From a virus (taxonomy: Duplodnaviria > Heunggongvirae > Uroviricota > Caudoviricetes), in IMG/VR virus record IMGVR_UViG_3300045988_029198, positions 1 to 58,013 of that record: 58,013 nucleotides of DNA; one strand, written 5' to 3'. Of the stretch, positions 16,106-47,697 are shown piece after piece. The notes below the pieces were generated by a model that worked only from the letters and a program-made list of their open reading frames with translations, had not been told where the DNA came from and did not search any database. The position numbers and the translations under genes are program-made. The number at the start of each line of letters is the position of its first letter. The stretch's first letter is position 1.

Positions 16106-17017
16106 ATGAGTAGGAAACGTTTAACCACAGAAGAGTTTATCACGCGTGCCCGTGAAGTTCATGGACACAAATACGATTACTCGCTAGTGGAGTATGTGAA
16201 TTGGCGCACACCTGTGAAAATCATCTGTCCTATACATGGAGTGTTTGAACAAATTCCTAATAATCATTTAAAAGGACGCAAGTGTTTATTCTGTGCAGGA
16301 AATCAACAATCAAATACCAATGAATTTACCACAAGGGGGCGCGAAGTTCATGGGGGTAAGTATGGTTATTCGTTGGTGAAATATAAAGACTCTCGGGCCA
16401 AAGTGAAAATCATTTGTCCGATACACGGAATGTTTGAACAACGTCCATATAGTCACTTGCAGCAAAAAGCAGGTTGCCCACAATGTGCTTGGGAACAACT
16501 GTCTGAACAAAGACGTTTATCCGCCGAAGAATTTATTACCCGTGCTCGCGAAGTTCACGGGGACCGTTACGATTATTCGTTGGTGATGTATGTTAACAAT
16601 TCCACCTCTGTAAAAATCATCTGTCCTGAGCATGGGATGTTTGAACAGGCTCCGAACAATCACACTTCAATGAAAACCGGTTGTCCTCGGTGTTCACAAA
16701 CAGGTTTTAACCCGTCAGAACCCGGTACACTCTACGTGTTAGCTGACGATAAAAAGTGCCCTACTCTGCTTAAAGTCGGTATCACAAACGACTTAAAACG
16801 GCGACTACGACAACTACAACGCGAAACAACACACCCAGTGGTTAAACTCGTGTCGTACCCGTTTCCACACGGCGCTGATGCTTACAAACTGGAACAAGAG
16901 GTACACAAGGTCTTCCGTGAACTTAATGCGCGTCTCAAAGGCTTTGACGGTGCTACAGAGTGGTTTAAATACTCTCCTGCAATCCTCGACTACATAAATG
17001 AAAAAGCCCGGAACTAA
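16106..17017 (+). CDS. T5orf172-domain (GIY-YIG superfamily) putative homing endonuclease with three N-terminal Cys/His repeats
   Basis: 303 aa; three ~45-aa repeats EFITRAREVHGxKYDYSLV...VKIICPIHGxFEQ...C; C-terminal LYVL...KVGITNDLKRRLRQLQ T5orf172-like core. Confidence 0.7.
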   Translation: MSRKRLTTEEFITRAREVHGHKYDYSLVEYVNWRTPVKIICPIHGVFEQIPNNHLKGRKCLFCAGNQQSNTNEFTTRGREVHGGKYGYSLVKYKDSRAKVKIICPIHGMFEQRPYSHLQQKAGCPQCAWEQLSEQRRLSAEEFITRAREVHGDRYDYSLVMYVNNSTSVKIICPEHGMFEQAPNNHTSMKTGCPRCSQTGFNPSEPGTLYVLADDKKCPTLLKVGITNDLKRRLRQLQRETTHPVVKLVSYPFPHGADAYKLEQEVHKVFRELNARLKGFDGATEWFKYSPAILDYINEKARN

Positions 17018-19754: not shown

Positions 19755-20182
19755 CGCTGATTAAACCTCACCATTATTCCGGCTTTTAATATAGCACGTT
19801 CGACAAACCCGGAAGGTGTCTGTGTACTGCTACCACCATTGAGAACCCCAATGTAAGGAACGTTATTAGTAATGTGCAGTTCCTGACCATTAACTTTAAT
19901 ACTGCTAATAGTGACCGTATCCTGTTCGATACGCGCTTTACTGGCTTCAACATTACCTGTTGGTGTATCAGGACTATTAGCGGGTTGCCCCTGATCGAAC
20001 CACCAGTTGTTGCTTGCCCAGCCACTCAATATTGGTGTACCATCAGGAGGCTCACTTATGAGTATGTTACGTAGTGTTAAAACATATCTAATGACTTGAC
20101 GATCCGTAAAATCTTGTAAGTCGGCTTTTATGTCTTTAAACACTCCAGTAATACGATTTATATCATTGATTTTGCTAGTCAT
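19751..20182 (-). CDS. head-tail connector/neck protein (putative)
   Basis: ATG at codon 23 of track ORF; synteny only. Confidence 0.4.
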   Translation of the reverse strand: MTSKINDINRITGVFKDIKADLQDFTDRQVIRYVLTLRNILISEPPDGTPILSGWASNNWWFDQGQPANSPDTPTGNVEASKARIEQDTVTISSIKVNGQELHITNNVPYIGVLNGGSSTQTPSGFVERAILKAGIMVRFNQR

Positions 20183-20204
20183 TGACAAACCTAAAGGTAG
20201 AAAA

Positions 20205-21101
20205 ATGGGCGGTAAAAGACTAACCAAAGAACAACTAGAGCATAACATAAAAGATATTTGTCAATCAAAAAATTACAAATTTATAAAATGGAAAGACGGG
20301 TTTAAAAACAAAGAATCACGAATTATTTTATCTTGTGTTACACACGGGGAATGGGACACTAAATGTTATCATTTTTTGAATGGTTCTGGTTGTCCGATCT
20401 GTGGTGGAACACGAACCACAAAAGGGTTAAGAATTGCACAGATTAAAGACAGTTTAACAAATTCTAAATCAAAGTTTATTAAATTTAAAACTAATTTTCA
20501 AAATGGAAATTCTGTTTGTTTGCTGAGCTGTATTGATCATGGTGGATGGGAGACAACAGTCAATAGACTAATCTTTACATCTGTTGATTGCCCGTTGTGT
20601 ATAACGAATAGACAGAAAACTAAACAAGAACGAGAAATTGAAATAACAAATAGATGTAAAGAAACAGGGTTGTTTTTTAATAAGATATTCGACGAACATC
20701 CGACATGGAAATCTAAAATATCATTAAAGTGTTCAACGCATGGTGATTTTGTTACAACAATTAATTCTTTTCTTAGTAAACAAAAAGGTTGTCCAAACTG
20801 TAGTAAAACAGGGTTTAAAGCTGGTAAGTATGCAACACTTTATGTCTTGCGGTCCACATGCGGTCGTTACGTTAAAATAGGTGTCAGTAATTGTGTAGAG
20901 CAAAGAATTAATACACTTCGTAGAAAAACACCATTTGATTTTCAAGTAATAGAAAAATTGAATGGACACGGGGCAACCATTCGTTCACTTGAAAAAGATT
21001 TTCATTCTCATTTTGAATCTGCAGGATTAACCGGGTTCGATGGTTGTACAGAGTGGTTAAAATGGAATCCAAATATAACCACTCTGATACGGATGTTATA
21101 G
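20205..21101 (+). CDS. T5orf172-domain putative homing endonuclease (paralogue 2)
   Basis: ATG at codon 26 of track ORF; Cys/His repeats plus T5orf172-like core; AT-rich; opposite strand inside the tail/neck operon. Confidence 0.7.
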   Translation: MGGKRLTKEQLEHNIKDICQSKNYKFIKWKDGFKNKESRIILSCVTHGEWDTKCYHFLNGSGCPICGGTRTTKGLRIAQIKDSLTNSKSKFIKFKTNFQNGNSVCLLSCIDHGGWETTVNRLIFTSVDCPLCITNRQKTKQEREIEITNRCKETGLFFNKIFDEHPTWKSKISLKCSTHGDFVTTINSFLSKQKGCPNCSKTGFKAGKYATLYVLRSTCGRYVKIGVSNCVEQRINTLRRKTPFDFQVIEKLNGHGATIRSLEKDFHSHFESAGLTGFDGCTEWLKWNPNITTLIRML

Positions 21102-26327: not shown

Positions 26328-26354
26328 ACCTTCAACCCTTCTTGTTTTCTTGAC

Positions 26355-26400
26355 CACAGGGTAGTTGTGTCGATGTAATCCGTCAAGAATTATTTTACGT
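26355..26400 (-). promoter_or_regulatory. conserved promoter module copy (minus strand)
   Basis: reverse complement of cgtcaagaattatttta at 26381-26397 gives AAAATAATTCTTGACG. Confidence 0.55.
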
Positions 26401-26484
26401 ATAGATTCATGAGAAGTATGCGACTCCCTATACCTTTTAAACCTCTTCTACTTACAACAACTTTTACTACTTATACCACTCTTC

Positions 26485-26587
26485 TATTTATTTATGTTTT
26501 CTATGTTATCTATAAAAATATAATAAAAAGAATAAGATAGAGAATAGTCGGTTAAAAAATAAACATGACGCGATCTATGAATCTATG
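26485..26587. repeat. ~95-bp AT-rich dispersed repeat, copy 1 (second copy 43476..43576)
   Basis: ctatgttttctatgttatctataaaaa.ataataaaaagaataagatagaga...ggttaaaaa.taaacatgacg..atctatg shared at ~85-90% identity between two intergenic regions. Confidence 0.8.
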
Positions 26588-26590
26588 ATC

Positions 26591-26680
26591 TACTAATACA
26601 CGTTCTGTATTAGCTGCAACTCAAAATCATGAAACCTATGTAAAACCATGTGTAGCTAATACAGAACGTGTATTAGCTGT
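26591..26680. promoter_or_regulatory. iteron/operator cluster upstream of plus-strand promoter
   Basis: two inverted copies of TAATACA-N5-TGTATTA flanked by AGCTG (about 26593-26614 and 26655-26678); AGCTAATACA motif shared with 43255-43700. Confidence 0.6.
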
Positions 26681-26682
26681 AT

Positions 26683-26730
26683 CTTTAAAATAATTCTTGA
26701 CGGATTACAGATGGTAGGGTATCTTTATCA
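26683..26730 (+). promoter_or_regulatory. conserved promoter module copy
   Basis: CTTTAAAATAATTCTTGACG, -35 at 26697-26702. Confidence 0.6.
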
Positions 26731-26771
26731 CGGGAAGCAGCGATGGGTTGCTTATGAACGAGGGTGTGAAA

Positions 26772-28513: not shown

Positions 28514-29437
28514 TTGACTAAACGAAAAACAGAACATGAAAGACTTTCAGAGATTTCAGAAATTTGCAAAGGTACTATTTATCATTTTGTCAGATTCTTA
28601 AATGGTTACAAGAATGCATCAAGTAGACTAATAATGCATTGTCAAAAACATGGTGAGTGGGAAACATCCTCTGATTTGATAGTGAATGGTAGAAATTTTT
28701 GTAAGAAATGTAGTAATGAGAACATAGCACTAAAAAATAGTATAGACCAAAAAGAATATGAAAAACGTATCACTAATATTTGTAACTCGCGAGGTTATAA
28801 ATTTGTAAAATGGATTGAAAATTATCATGGTGTTCGCACAAAAGCATTAATAGAATGTACTAAACATGGTCAGTGGGTGTCTTCTGGCAACAACATTACT
28901 ATAAATAAAAGTTTCTGTAAGAAATGTTATTTTGAAAATAAAAAGACACCATTACACATAAGAGAAAAAGAGATAAACGAAAAATGTTTGTCATTAAATT
29001 ATGAATTTTTGGGTTGGGTCAACGGGTATGTTAATCAATACAGTAAGATAAAAATTAAATGTCAAAAACATGGTGAATTTATAACAACACCTACAACATT
29101 ATTACATACTGGCAGACGTTGTGCAGGTTGCGCTACAACAGGTTTTAAAATCAAAAACAAAGCTAGCTTATATGTTTTAAGATCTCTATGTGGTAGTTAT
29201 GTTAAAATAGGTATTAGCAACAATGTTGAAAATAGAATAAAAATATTGAAGAAAAGAACACCTTTCGAATTCAATGTTATTGAAATATATAATTCTGATG
29301 GTAAAACCATTCGTTCACTTGAAAAAGATTTTCATTCTCATTTTGAGTCAGCAGAGTTGACTGGGTTCGATGGTTGTACTGAGTGGTTAAAATGGAATCC
29401 AAATATAACCACTCTGATACGTATAATCACGGGATAA
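28514..29437 (+). CDS. T5orf172-domain putative homing endonuclease (paralogue 3, TTG start)
   Basis: 307 aa; Cys/His repeats plus T5orf172-like core; last 116 bp ~92% identical to the 3' end of paralogue 2; AT-rich. Confidence 0.65.
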   Translation: MTKRKTEHERLSEISEICKGTIYHFVRFLNGYKNASSRLIMHCQKHGEWETSSDLIVNGRNFCKKCSNENIALKNSIDQKEYEKRITNICNSRGYKFVKWIENYHGVRTKALIECTKHGQWVSSGNNITINKSFCKKCYFENKKTPLHIREKEINEKCLSLNYEFLGWVNGYVNQYSKIKIKCQKHGEFITTPTTLLHTGRRCAGCATTGFKIKNKASLYVLRSLCGSYVKIGISNNVENRIKILKKRTPFEFNVIEIYNSDGKTIRSLEKDFHSHFESAELTGFDGCTEWLKWNPNITTLIRIITG

Positions 29438-42250: not shown

Positions 42251-42439
42251 ATGGAACTGAAAGTAATCAAACGCGCTAAAGACCTGACACCCGGTGCTTT
42301 TAAAATCGGAACCGTTGTTGATCTGGATACTGACGACATGGTTGTTTATCACAAGGGTCTGGAATGGAATGTTCGTAAAACTGACGATGGTTACTACACG
42401 ATGGGTAACAGTGAAACAGTTTTTGAAGTTGTTGTGTAA
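42251..42439 (+). CDS. hypothetical protein
   Basis: track ORF 62 aa, GAGGA RBS. Confidence 0.45.
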   Translation: MELKVIKRAKDLTPGAFKIGTVVDLDTDDMVVYHKGLEWNVRKTDDGYYTMGNSETVFEVVV

Positions 42440-42468: not shown

Positions 42469-42555
42469 AAAACGCTCTCTGACGAACTTAACACCCCACA
42501 CTGTACCATCGCACCACCCAACCACCAATCGTCAAAAAGCAAACGGTTTCCGGCG

Positions 42556-43191
42556 TTATTTGAGTGCCTTCTGATACAGTTGCGCGATATCGTCGATGGT
42601 TGCACCTTCAGGAACACTCTGAACCACGTTTCCAACCACACCTGACAATTCCACACGGTCGATACTGTTCCCGGTGATCTTATCCAGTTGTTCAGACGCT
42701 TTTGCACGAGTTTTCGGGTCGAACAGTTCACGTGTCACCAGGATGTATCCGCCCAGCATGTAACGTTTGTAGCAAACTACGTACTGTTGCAGATGGCTGG
42801 GGATATCGTCGGTACTGTTCACCCACAGGTGTTTCGCTTCCGTGTCGTCTTCACCAGGAACAATGACACGCTGACAATACGGTTCCAGTAATTCTTCAGC
42901 CGTGCTTGCCGCTCGTTTCCACCACTCGACACGACTCGTTAACGATTCCCCGACAGACTCAAGCGCATGACTTCCCATCGCGTCCAGATAGTTCAACACC
43001 TTCGTATTCGACAGGAGGCGATGTGCGGTAACTTTAGCTGCGTCAGGGTCTTTATGTCCCGGATAAGCGTGTAAGACGCACTGAGCGTTGCTGAAGCCGT
43101 TATTGACACGATCTAACCACAGGTTAGCAAAACGGAGTTGATCGGTTGTTAACTCCAGAGCAGCCCTTTTAGCCCGGTCTGAAATTTTCAT
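42556..43191 (-). CDS. terminase small subunit (Terminase_2-like)
   Basis: ATG at codon 40 of track ORF with GGGAG RBS; LTTDQLRFANLWL...FSNAQCVLHAYPG...RLLSNTKVLNYL resembles TerS HTH region. Confidence 0.6.
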   Translation of the reverse strand: MKISDRAKRAALELTTDQLRFANLWLDRVNNGFSNAQCVLHAYPGHKDPDAAKVTAHRLLSNTKVLNYLDAMGSHALESVGESLTSRVEWWKRAASTAEELLEPYCQRVIVPGEDDTEAKHLWVNSTDDIPSHLQQYVVCYKRYMLGGYILVTRELFDPKTRAKASEQLDKITGNSIDRVELSGVVGNVVQSVPEGATIDDIAQLYQKALK

Positions 43192-43254
43192 AAATTTGTC
43201 TCCCATAAATTTTAAATTAGTTTCCCACAGATACCCACGGGTTGTCCACACGCC

Positions 43255-43700
43255 CTGTTTTACAGCTAATACAATGTTAGTATTAAGTTTACAGTTAGTG
43301 CACAACATGCACTAATTTTCGACCACATACATAAATAAGTAACCCATAATCACAATCATTTCAAAGACTTGCATAAAAACATAGATTACAATAGGTATCT
43401 CCCAGACTTTTATTTTAGCTCTATTTACAGCTAATACACTATATGCACTATCTCTATCTTTCTATACTACTTCTTCTTTATATCTATGTTTTCTATGTTA
43501 TCTATAAAAAGATAATAAAAAGAATAAGATAGAGAGAGGTTGGTTAAAAAGTAAACATGACGAAATCTATGTTAAGTATAACTTTAATGCACAACATGCA
43601 TTATATAATTCACAACGTGCATTAGCTGTACCAACATAGATACACAACGTGCACTAACAGCTAATACACAACGTGCATCTTGCACTAGCTGCTAACGCGC
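43255..43700. promoter_or_regulatory. AT-rich iteron cluster between divergent terS and a DNA-binding-protein gene (candidate operator / pac / ori)
   Basis: at least 5 copies of CACAAC(A/G)TGCA and 3 copies of AGCTAATACA; contains copy 2 of the 95-bp repeat. Confidence 0.55.
43476..43576. repeat. ~95-bp AT-rich dispersed repeat, copy 2
   Basis: see copy 1 at 26485..26587. Confidence 0.8.
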
Positions 43701-43739
43701 GTTATGATTTATCCGTGGTCAAACAAGAAGGGTATGATA

Positions 43740-44516
43740 ATGAAAAAGAACCTTTTAGACGAATTGATAGATTTAAAAGGCGGGGTACAAAATGCTGTTG
43801 AATACCTTAATCGTCGAGGTGTTAAGGTGACTGTTGGTCGTTACAACCAATGGTTGAGCGGTAGGTTTCATCCTAAATATGAAACGATCAGTATTATTCT
43901 TGAAGAGATTACTGACTTCACACTGTCACCCTTGCCAGTACAACATTCTGACGAAAACATTGTTCTTAAACACACAATACCGGTTACCGAACTGCGTCAG
44001 AAATTACCACACAGGCGTTTTGCTAATAACTACTGGCAACGTGTCAGATACGTTGATTCACAGATCCTGGAAGCTGTTCACGGTCACGACGTGTGGACAC
44101 GGTTTGAGGCGATGTGTGGTAATTTTGAATGCGCAAGATACGTGTTACGCAGAAATTTAAACGAACACACAATTACTGACAGTTGGATTCAGAATGGTTT
44201 GCGCCGGGGATGGGTCCCGGAATGTGTAAATGTAATGGCCGATTTGCTTGAAAAATACGAAGGCACCGGGACACCGTTTAACGTGATGGTTTGTGAAGCA
44301 CCTGTAGCACGAGTGGAACCACCTGTAGCACGAGTGGAACCACCTGTAGCACGAGTGGAACCACCTGTAGCACGAGTGGAACCACCTGTAGTCGATGTCA
44401 GCGATTTGAAGGAGAAAATCAGACTGTATGCGTTATCACACAACCCGCATTGCGATGTAGATAATATGCCTGATGATGTTGTTTTGATGATGTATAAAGA
44501 TATGATGGGTCAATAA
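43740..44516 (+). CDS. putative DNA-binding protein (N-terminal HTH-like) with (PVARVEP)4 tandem repeat
   Basis: ATG at codon 13 of track ORF with GAAGGG upstream; start ambiguous between 43704, 43734 and 43740. Confidence 0.45.
   Translation: MKKNLLDELIDLKGGVQNAVEYLNRRGVKVTVGRYNQWLSGRFHPKYETISIILEEITDFTLSPLPVQHSDENIVLKHTIPVTELRQKLPHRRFANNYWQRVRYVDSQILEAVHGHDVWTRFEAMCGNFECARYVLRRNLNEHTITDSWIQNGLRRGWVPECVNVMADLLEKYEGTGTPFNVMVCEAPVARVEPPVARVEPPVARVEPPVARVEPPVVDVSDLKEKIRLYALSHNPHCDVDNMPDDVVLMMYKDMMGQ
44299..44393. repeat. 21-bp tandem repeat, ~4.4 copies, in-frame
   Basis: cacctgtagcacgagtggaac repeated head-to-tail. Confidence 0.9.
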
Positions 44517-44520
44517 AGAT

Positions 44521-44547
44521 AGCGGGGTAGTTAGCCCCGCTTTTTTG
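44521..44547. terminator. rho-independent terminator between convergent genes
   Basis: gcgggg-tagttag-ccccgc then TTTTTT. Confidence 0.7.
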
Positions 44548-44742
44548 TTAGTATTCGTCGCTATCATCCTTGTCATTGTATTCGATAAAATGACCCAATC
44601 GTTGTAATTCAGCACCTGCCATGAAATAACCTAGTGCGTCTGCTCTTTCGGAATCATTTTTAAATTCAGAAAGCGGATAACGTTCATAGAATTTATTAAT
44701 CAAAAGTGCTTGATCGAATTTTGTTGCATCATGATTCTTCAT
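44548..44742 (-). CDS. hypothetical acidic protein
   Basis: track ORF 64 aa. Confidence 0.4.
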   Translation of the reverse strand: MKNHDATKFDQALLINKFYERYPLSEFKNDSERADALGYFMAGAELQRLGHFIEYNDKDDSDEY

Positions 44743-46929: not shown

Positions 46930-47697
46930 TCATAACTGGTGCTCCTTCAGTGCTTTTAACGCTTCGAACTGTTCAGCGGTAAGTTCAACCAGTACTTTAC
47001 CACCTTCCGAACGGGTTACAGACCGTTCACCACGGATTGCTTCCACTGCAGACCGTACCAGTTTAGCAGGTGGACGACGCGTTACTACTGGTTCTTTATC
47101 ACCTGCTTTAAACTGGCGAATGGCTGCTGATGCGCTGATTTCACCGTTCTGAATACGACGTTTAAGTTCCAGCGGCATATCAAGAATATTCAGTTGTTCG
47201 TAAACGTGTTGGACGGTTTTACCGACCTGTGTAGCGATCTGCTCAACACTCATACCATATGAACGGAAACGACCGTAAATAACAGCACGTTCAACGGGTG
47301 ACCACGGTTTACCCTCATTACCTTTTAACAGTGTCAGGGTCTGTTGTAGTTCGTCACCGGACGATTCAACAACGTCTACTGTCAGAATCGGCGTCCCGGC
47401 CTCAATAGCTGCCAATACGCCACGTAAACGATGCTCACCATCCTGAACATAAGGAACACCATCAACAACCTGTACCACGATCGGTGGAACGAAATCGCCG
47501 TTGGTATAAGCCTGACGAAAGTTTTCAATGTGTGCCAGTGCTGCTTCAGTTTCCCAGTAGTTGTCGGTAAATACACCGCGTGGGTTATGTCCTGGACGAA
47601 TCTTGATAATACGCGGATCAATGCGATATGCGTTACCACGTTTTACGTTGGTTTTATCGGTATCAGATAGCTTGCGAAGGGAGTTAATGTTAGCCAT
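46930..47697 (-). CDS. ParB-like nuclease domain protein
   Basis: 255 aa; ParB N-domain motif VQDGEHRLRG; own promoter copy upstream. Confidence 0.7.
   Translation of the reverse strand: MANINSLRKLSDTDKTNVKRGNAYRIDPRIIKIRPGHNPRGVFTDNYWETEAALAHIENFRQAYTNGDFVPPIVVQVVDGVPYVQDGEHRLRGVLAAIEAGTPILTVDVVESSGDELQQTLTLLKGNEGKPWSPVERAVIYGRFRSYGMSVEQIATQVGKTVQHVYEQLNILDMPLELKRRIQNGEISASAAIRQFKAGDKEPVVTRRPPAKLVRSAVEAIRGERSVTRSEGGKVLVELTAEQFEALKALKEHQL

Follow-up and report, generated by a model that had tools for sequence, protein, structure and literature searches.

The O proteins of lambdoid phages carry an N-terminal specificity domain which co-varies with the iterons, and a C-terminal part which contacts a conserved helicase-loading partner. 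In the iteron plasmids (P1 RepA-oriR, F RepE, pSC101 RepA), an AT-rich unwinding element is followed by the iterons and then by the rep gene, the gene-proximal iterons also act as autoregulatory operators, and the replicon has another iteron cluster at a different place. The virulent pac-type siphophage SPP1 has two origins, oriL and oriR, with the same G38P-binding repeats near AT-rich DNA; one of the two origins belongs to the late region. The papillomavirus E2/E1 system relies on a dimeric palindrome reader with a flexible hinge and on an AT-rich origin core, to which an SF3 helicase is recruited, and it regulates transcription as well. To our knowledge, no origin, initiator or regulator has been assigned in the 9NA-like phages (Nonanavirus/Sashavirus, including BASEL Bas82). 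Here we describe an array of 19-bp dyad sites around an AT-rich element in the genome of a 9NA/Sasha-like siphophage (IMG/VR record IMGVR_UViG_3300045988_029198, 58,013 nucleotides, hereafter the window). The array occupies the gap between the small terminase gene terS and a divergent gene at 43740..44516, which codes for a protein of 258 amino acids, and a smaller version of it is present at 26.5 kb. We regard this module as a sequence-specific reader with repeated sites, and its noteworthy features are the two-locus layout and the swappable cassette made of a protein domain and its sites. We favour, with a probability of roughly 45%, the reading of the module as a replication origin that has a dedicated recognition protein, which would also regulate its own synthesis.

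The terS gap is 548 bp long (43192-43739) and contains seven or eight dyad-symmetric sites. The first-pass annotation of the window had reported at least five CACAAC(A/G)TGCA iterons and three AGCTAATACA motifs in this region, and both counts were reproduced. CACAACRTGCA occurs exactly five times, at 43301, 43590, 43611, 43643 and 43667, and elsewhere in the 58 kb only matches with one mismatch were found. The AGCTAATACA motif is exact at 43264, 43429 and 43659, with a one-mismatch copy on the minus strand at 43618 and three further exact copies at 26606-26678; the total of 11 matches was reached in none of 100 shuffles. The CACAACRTGCA 11-mers are the centres of 19-bp dyads of the form TAAT(G/A)CA-N5-TG(C/T)ATTA, often with ACAGC in front, and AGCTAATACA is the left arm of the same dyad. 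The sites thus have 7-bp inverted arms and a 5-bp spacer, and the one at 43585-43603 is a perfect palindrome. A genome scan for the 19-bp pattern, in which up to two mismatches were allowed, returned nine sites, all nine within two intergenic regions of together 962 bp. Seven of them (43267, 43296, 43432, 43585, 43606, 43638 and 43662) stand on both sides of the 100-bp AT-rich element in the terS gap and the remaining two (26594 and 26657) belong to the second locus; no iteron array was found elsewhere in the genome. Four close relatives carry one extra 77-bp unit at the position of 43676..43708, so that the number of sites differs among close relatives. In the Sasha record, site L2 (43296-43314, corresponding to KX987158 152-172) is labelled 'terminator', which is probably a by-product of its palindromic shape, as no gene upstream reads into it.

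The AT-rich element of the terS gap contains 9-bp tandem TATCTATGT units and ATCTATG boxes. Its second copy is located in the gap 26334..26747, upstream of the head-scaffold-capsid operon, and with respect to the late genes on their left both copies point the same way. At 26.5 kb the AT-rich copy is followed by two 25-bp palindromes (AGCTAATACA-GAACG-TGTATTAGCT). The two least stable 100-bp segments of the genome hold these elements: 26462-26561 ranks lowest and 43432-43531, which covers the left part of the element, ranks second. Their nearest-neighbour sums are -104.1 and -104.6 kcal/mol, compared to a genome mean of -134.3 with a standard deviation (SD) of 6.9, and thus lie more than 4 SD away. 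Of the eight ATCTATG heptamers in the genome, six fall within the two gaps, against an expectation of 0.13. The possibility that the AT-rich element is an RNA gene was considered and rejected, since no Rfam family was found and the folding z-scores were inconsistent between the copies (-3.0 and -2.1 versus -1.2 and +0.3).

Both gaps were gathered from relatives of the phage and were available together in five genomes. In the lineages compared the layout is constant (late gene, spacer, AT-rich element, repeated dyads, next gene), and it is retained while the sequence of the dyad differs by lineage. Where the window has the dyad given above, 9NA and the IMG/VR contig 3300048904_000047 (contig 47) have (A/C)TAACA-N5-TGTTA with a TAGTTNC extension, contigs 3300045988_057523 and _062584 have CTTACCA-N3-TGGTAAG, and the Logan contig L013 has TACTAT-S-ATAGTA. 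When the half-sites were cross-tabulated, each of the five genomes contained its own half-site in both gaps (11+4 in the window, 9+2 in 9NA, 9+4 in contig 47 and 5+3 each in contigs 57523 and 62584), the half-sites of the other lineages being absent or at background level. In 9NA, seven of the eight exact TAACA-N5-TGTTA matches of the genome fall within the two gaps. The presence of the lineage's half-site at both loci suggests therefore that one factor per lineage reads both of them. The ATCTAT box is found in all five genomes. A distant relative, IMGVR_UViG_3300036785_000282, whose head protein is 72% identical, has other repeats upstream of its head operon, namely GTTTCAC/GTGACAC units and three ATACCG-N3-CGGTAT palindromes, which indicates that the layout extends past the lineages analysed.

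These comparisons bear on the view that the repeats have no function and were left behind by slippage or recombination in an AT-rich spacer. Such a view could account for the 77-bp duplication or deletion that changes the copy number among close relatives. However, the architecture is kept where the flanking protein is only 38-43% identical, dyad symmetry is maintained despite the change in sequence, and the change is concerted at loci 17 kb apart. The comparative data thus effectively refute this explanation, which we regard as extremely improbable.

Which protein reads the sites was approached through the same lineages. Between the window and 9NA, TerS, which is gp1 in 9NA, is 87% identical, a ParB-like protein (46930..47697) 90%, the primase-helicase 91% and the helicase 81%, compared to 42.5% for the 258-amino-acid protein next to the array, in which the divergence is concentrated in residues 1-60 and the core and tail are well conserved. 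Since TerS, the ParB-like protein and the primase-helicase are 87-91% conserved between lineages with unrelated sites, none of the three appears to be the reader. TerS was rejected as the iteron reader on the further ground that across lineages it is 82-87% identical overall with nearly invariant residues 1-60, although the sites are unrelated. A natural exchange points in the same direction. One homologue, P0003, is a near-exact match to the window protein from approximately residue 75 on and has a different N-terminal domain, and on its contig the AT-rich element is nearly unchanged, with the window-type sites replaced by TACTAT-S-ATAGTA. When IMG/VR was scanned for exact copies of the P0003-type site (CACTATGATAGTATTA), only single chance matches on unrelated contigs were obtained. 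The earlier suggestion that the adjacent protein is the natural candidate for binding the iterons is thus borne out at the sequence level, as the sites co-vary with its N-terminal helix-turn-helix (HTH) domain across five lineages, including this swap of domain and sites, and it is very probably the N-terminal domain that reads the dyads. Another contig, L014, carries a stand-alone gene for the 9NA-type N-terminal HTH domain (1-151) directly before a full-length member with another N-terminal domain (148-831), which suggests that the domain moves as a unit. The stand-alone domain may be left over from recombination, or may compete for the sites of another lineage.

The same observations speak to a role in packaging. 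The first-pass annotation had considered a packaging initiation (pac) site, and the pac sites of SPP1 and P1 consist indeed of repeated boxes around an AT-rich or bent region near terS, which are read by TerS or the pacase. In contrast to those systems, TerS is invariant here while the sites change, and the module is present twice; the iterons therefore do not behave as a classical pac site read by TerS. In another form of the idea, the conserved TerS would recognise the AT-rich element with its ATCTATG boxes as the pac site, or else the neighbouring protein would be a terminase adaptor acting on the lineage-specific sites. In favour of this, the module lies directly upstream of terS and the reader gene stands beside terS in every lineage examined. 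Moreover, TerS and the ATCTATG boxes are both conserved across lineages, with the concentration of the boxes mentioned above, and the AT-rich element and its boxes stay constant where TerS is constant, as a pac site would. A pac fragment and pac-site headful packaging were reported for 9NA (PMC4153490), and a further article, citing Zeng et al. 2019, gives a pac-type headful mechanism for the 9NA-like phages (PMC8954984). However, the iterons do not co-vary with TerS, and two complete modules 17 kb apart would result in two packaging series. We also know of no terminase system with such an adaptor in a virulent pac phage. Packaging is therefore an unlikely function of the module. The adaptor variant, in which the swappable N-terminal domain would read the sites while the core and tail would hand an invariant terminase or primase-helicase to the DNA, appears improbable as well. 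If it were true, the choice of the DNA to be packaged or replicated would have moved from TerS or the helicase to an exchangeable module, which related virulent phages could trade, thereby avoiding cross-talk in mixed infections.

The 258-amino-acid protein belongs to the 9NA gp84/Sasha gp81 family and is annotated as 'hypothetical' in all records examined. Its start was placed at 43740 (MKKN...), as in its homologues, rather than at 43704. Residues 1-60 form the variable XRE/Cro-like HTH domain, followed by a conserved helical core (75-180), a PVARVEP linker (184-216) and a conserved C-terminal tail (217-258). Modelled alone, residues 1-64 gave four helices with a predicted local distance difference test score (pLDDT) of 91, and their top fold matches in the PDB were almost all HTH proteins of the XRE/Cro type (the N-terminal domain of DdrO, Xfaso1 Cro, P2 C, N15 Cro, Aca2, CylR2, ImmR and C.Csp231I), with template-modelling scores of approximately 0.55-0.62 and root-mean-square deviations of 2.2-3.3 A. 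A profile search of the PDB with the N-terminal domain yielded no match. We therefore predict from the models, with moderate confidence, that this domain has an XRE/Cro-type HTH fold. The full-length AlphaFold2 model, built on a 6-sequence alignment, was poor outside residues 1-60 (mean pLDDT of 61), and a fold search was uninformative for the core. An hhalign comparison of the conserved core with the N-terminal fold, as a possible second copy, gave 10% probability over 25 columns, which is a hint and not a finding. In one lineage the conserved core is duplicated.

No domain was found in the whole protein by a Pfam search, including no match to Phage_rep_O, and no homology to a known initiator family (Phage_rep_O, Rep_3, DnaD and others) was detected in Pfam, in PHROG or among 1.84 billion representative sequences. 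About a dozen true relatives were found among these representatives, apparently all of them orphan homologues from the 9NA-like phage group, and the remaining matches covered the Pro-rich repeat only. This repeat, described as (PVARVEP)4 in the first-pass annotation, was recovered as a 21-nt tandem repeat (44295-44391; 4.6 copies, 98% match). It is absent from 9NA gp84 and from the homologue P0006, has four copies in the window and is longer in the homologue P0001 and in Sasha (282-bp repeat region); it is thus no part of DNA recognition, and between the conserved core and the tail of about 40 residues it behaves like a flexible hinge whose length varies.

The favoured reading, a replication origin combined with autoregulation, sees in the locus a self-contained DNA-recognition module, in which dimers of the predicted XRE/Cro-type domain of the 43740..44516 product would read the array of 19-bp dyads around the easily melted AT-rich element. 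The origin would be situated in the terS gap, and the locus at 26.5 kb would be a second origin or a helper site. The 258-amino-acid protein would mark the origin, and its core and its C-terminal tail, mounted on the Pro-rich hinge, would bring in the NrS-1/D5-type primase-helicase, which by analogy may seat on the conserved ATCTATG boxes of the AT-rich element. The sites nearest the 43740 gene would let its product shut off its own synthesis and, in the 9NA-type lineages, the site adjacent to terS may likewise shut off terS.

Several observations argue for the origin. The iterons flank the most easily melted DNA of the genome and the gene of their reader lies alongside; specificity domain and sites are swapped as one cassette; and the number of sites varies among close relatives in a genome with no other iteron array. 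In addition, the replication genes identified code for polymerase A, a Gp2.5-like single-stranded DNA-binding protein (SSB), an exonuclease and a primpol of the NrS-1 type joined to D5_N and SF3 helicase domains, and no recognisable initiator was found beside the primpol-SF3 helicase in this set. The terL, portal and tape measure genes have tightly packed back-to-back promoters without a 300-450-bp insert. As these other late genes lack it, the insert looks like a discrete DNA module rather than general late-gene control.

The module resembles ori-lambda in having several dyad iterons of about 19 bp next to an AT-rich tract and in the variation of the iteron number among relatives. No sequence similarity to lambda O was found, however, and an XRE/Cro fold rather than a winged helix is predicted. 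Further differences from lambda are that the sites lie upstream of the gene and not inside it, that there are two loci, and that the phage has its own primpol-SF3 helicase instead of a borrowed DnaB. The layout of AT-rich element, iterons and reader gene, together with a second cluster, is also that of the iteron plasmids, whose Rep proteins differ in being two-winged-helix monomers on direct repeats, whereas dyads and an XRE-like fold are found here in a virulent phage. SPP1 likewise has initiator-type repeats beside AT-rich DNA at two loci, but no sequence relationship was found, and in SPP1 the initiator gene contains oriL. The helicase of the window phage belongs to the SF3/D5 type, as in the papillomavirus E2/E1 system, which is offered as an analogy only, the proteins being unrelated and the host domain different. 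In lambda there are 4 iterons and in Stx phages 6, and unwinding requires no more than two iterons with the AT tract (PMC7466680). This minimum in lambdoid phages matches the small copy at 26.5 kb.

Other findings weigh against an origin. No match to the DnaA-box or integration host factor consensus was found in either region, and the GC skew turns at both loci together with switches of gene orientation and is therefore uninformative. The Foldseek E-values of the 64-residue domain are weak (0.7-3), as expected for such a small size, and Pfam HTH_3 is found below threshold in four of six lineage N-terminal domains (profile positions 19-51, E 0.1-0.23, scores of about 12-13 bits for a cut-off of 23). 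The conserved core has no detectable relatives beyond the 9NA-like phages. XRE/Cro HTH domains are typical of transcription regulators, and phage and plasmid initiators are mostly winged helices. In three lineages a site stands beside the terS ribosome-binding site, which suits an operator better than an origin. Finally, we infer binding, unwinding and initiation at the module from sequence comparison.

Some of these points lend themselves to another explanation, namely that the module serves transcription control only. A regulator similar to Cro or to the controller (C) proteins of restriction-modification systems would act on dyad operators in two divergent control regions, where it would repress its own gene and, in the 9NA-type phages, also terS, and would modulate a rightward early promoter by the head operon. 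The AT-rich element would be promoter or UP-element DNA or a platform for a host factor, unrelated to replication. The fold of the N-terminal domain, typical of repressors, and the recurrent weak HTH_3 match are consistent with this, as is the dyad symmetry of the sites. In 9NA, contig 47 and contig 57523 sites adjoin the ribosome-binding region of terS and overlap that of the reader's own gene, and in the window the overlap is with the -35-like TTGCAC, as the last degenerate unit covers a promoter-like pair, TTGCAC-17-TATGAT, which we infer to be the promoter of the 43740 gene. The last site of the head region abuts the UP-like element of a conserved rightward promoter repeat in every lineage, and the 43740 gene is a single unit with a closing terminator. 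Cro/CI, the C proteins and phi29 p4 also provide examples of small HTH dimers that bind dyad operators in front of their own gene, within divergent early/late control regions. They differ from the present case by its roughly 200 extra conserved residues, its 8-10 sites per region and its duplicated AT-rich element. Indeed, 8-10 sites over 450 bp are far above the need of autoregulation, and the duplicated 100-bp element (89% identity), which is the least stable DNA of the genome, is left unexplained. In the head region, 25, 25, 31 or 33 bp separate the last site from the -35 of the promoter, depending on the lineage, and a shift of 6-8 bp is awkward for face-of-helix activation. Moreover, the sites are missing from other late operons, and not all lineages have the same genes on the right of the head region. 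Transcription control as the sole function is therefore possible but doubtful. Autoregulation is likely whether the module is an origin or a transcription switch, and both may hold together.

Table 1. Features of the terS gap, of the second locus at 26.5 kb and of their flanks, in window coordinates
Feature	Position	Strand	Basis or remark
AT-rich element, second copy, 100 nt	26480..26579		Head-operon intergenic region
Site H1, CTAATACA-CGTTC-TGTATTAGCTG	26593..26618	+	Dyad scan
Site H2, AGCTAATACA-GAACG-TGTATTAGCT	26651..26676	+	Adjoins UP-like element of rightward promoter repeat at 26684
terS, small terminase, 211 aa	42556..43191	-	PHROG 51 terminase small subunit, E 7.5e-12
Conserved CCCGTGGGTATCT motif, ~40 nt upstream of terS	43227..43243	-	Present in all lineages
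Site L1, ACAGC-TAATACA-ATGTT-AGTATTA, degenerate dyad	43262..43285	+	Dyad scan
Site L2, TAGTGCA-CAACA-TGCACTA	43291..43314	+	Dyad scan
Site L3, TAATACA-CTATA-TGCACTA	43427..43450	+	Dyad scan
AT-rich element	43455..43575		Core 43472-43571 89% identical to 26480-26579
Site R1, TAATGCA-CAACA-TGCATTA, perfect dyad	43585..43603	+	Dyad scan
Site R2, TAATTCA-CAACG-TGCATTA-GCTGTA	43606..43630	+	Dyad scan
Site R3, AGATACA-CAACG-TGCACTA	43638..43656	+	Dyad scan
Site R4, ACAGC-TAATACA-CAACG-TGCATCT	43657..43680	+	Dyad scan
Degenerate unit CATCTTGCACTAGCTGCTAA	43676..43708	+	Overlaps promoter-like pair TTGCAC-17-TATGAT of downstream gene
258-aa orphan protein, 9NA gp84/Sasha gp81 family	43740..44516	+	Homology; PHROG 25538 (function unknown)
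21-nt tandem repeat, 4.6 copies, 98% match, encoding the (PVARVEP)4 linker	44295..44391	+	Copy number differs between phages
Bidirectional intrinsic terminator, strong	44521..44541		Closes single-gene unit of 43740..44516

The window is a complete, circularly permuted genome, as indicated by an identical 30-bp tandem repeat (ACACCAGCGGCAGCACCTGTAGCAGCGCCT) at both ends (1-121 and 57905-58013). The ends cut inside a repeat-bearing gene beside the DNA polymerase, which probably codes for the Gp2.5-like SSB, and a core, CACCTGTAGCA, is common to this end repeat and to the PVARVEP repeat. According to Megablast, the region 42500-44600 is 94-97% identical to Sasha, Sergei, Solent, AVIO78A, PDP46, PJ16 and KarinMuster_Bas82 (Sashavirus/9NA-like siphophages), and its terS portion is 80-84% identical to 9NA and SP-062/069. 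The terS gene is annotated as such in the Sasha and Bas82 records. We placed its start at 43191; a longer open frame reaching 43308 is not conserved. The Bas82 annotation gives terS 250 amino acids and a start within a dyad site (window 43192-43308), but the gene of 211 amino acids, starting as in Sasha and 9NA, is the likely one, because a stop codon closes the upstream extension in a distant relative (L008). The conserved CCCGTGGGTATCT motif upstream of terS is possibly a promoter or leader element. Past the 3' end of terS, a small gene on the opposite strand (42251..42439) matches Pfam PF25180, 'Phage antiviral trigger protein Gp54' (E 3.6e-21).

Three paralogous endonuclease-like genes (16106..17017, 20130..21101 and 28514..29437; repeat families D5, D6, D9 and D11) are found amid the structural genes of the window, with one counterpart in 9NA at approximately 21.7-22.6 kb. 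They look like insertions of the homing-endonuclease type.

A sigma-70 scan showed no promoter above threshold in the terS-gap region. A promoter-like repeat, TTTAAAATAATTCTTGACGGATTACA, made of an UP-like A/T tract and TTGAC, is highly conserved and present in at least 14 copies on both strands (15853, 26374 on the minus strand, 26684, 31592, 33201, 35424, 38892, 40357, 42174, 47748 and 50376 both on the minus strand, 53554, 55276 and 55339). It mostly precedes small plus-strand gene clusters scattered among the late genes, and no copy is found at terS or at the 43740 gene. The heptamer CCCGTGG is also over-represented, with 25 copies versus 4.5 expected, a count that 0 of 100 shuffles reached; 18 of the copies are on the minus strand, and examples are those at 43235, 38866, 37996, 47804 and 49565. 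Immediately in front of terS, terL, the tape-measure gene and the 43740 gene (CCGTGGT at 43713) there are copies or near-copies, often in an extended -10-like context (TGnTAnnnT). The heptamer could be a promoter or start-site motif of the phage, or else an effect of codon usage.

The comparison across relatives reveals at least four natural specificity classes in which a protein domain is matched to its DNA sites, and it eliminates TerS from the candidate readers. If the module is an origin, as we favour, it would define the replicon of the 9NA-like group, and an XRE-type reader would there serve an SF3 primase-helicase; should it be a switch, its reader would be the first regulator known in this group. 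Either way, the swappable cassette of domain and sites would be useful for the engineering of orthogonal phage parts.

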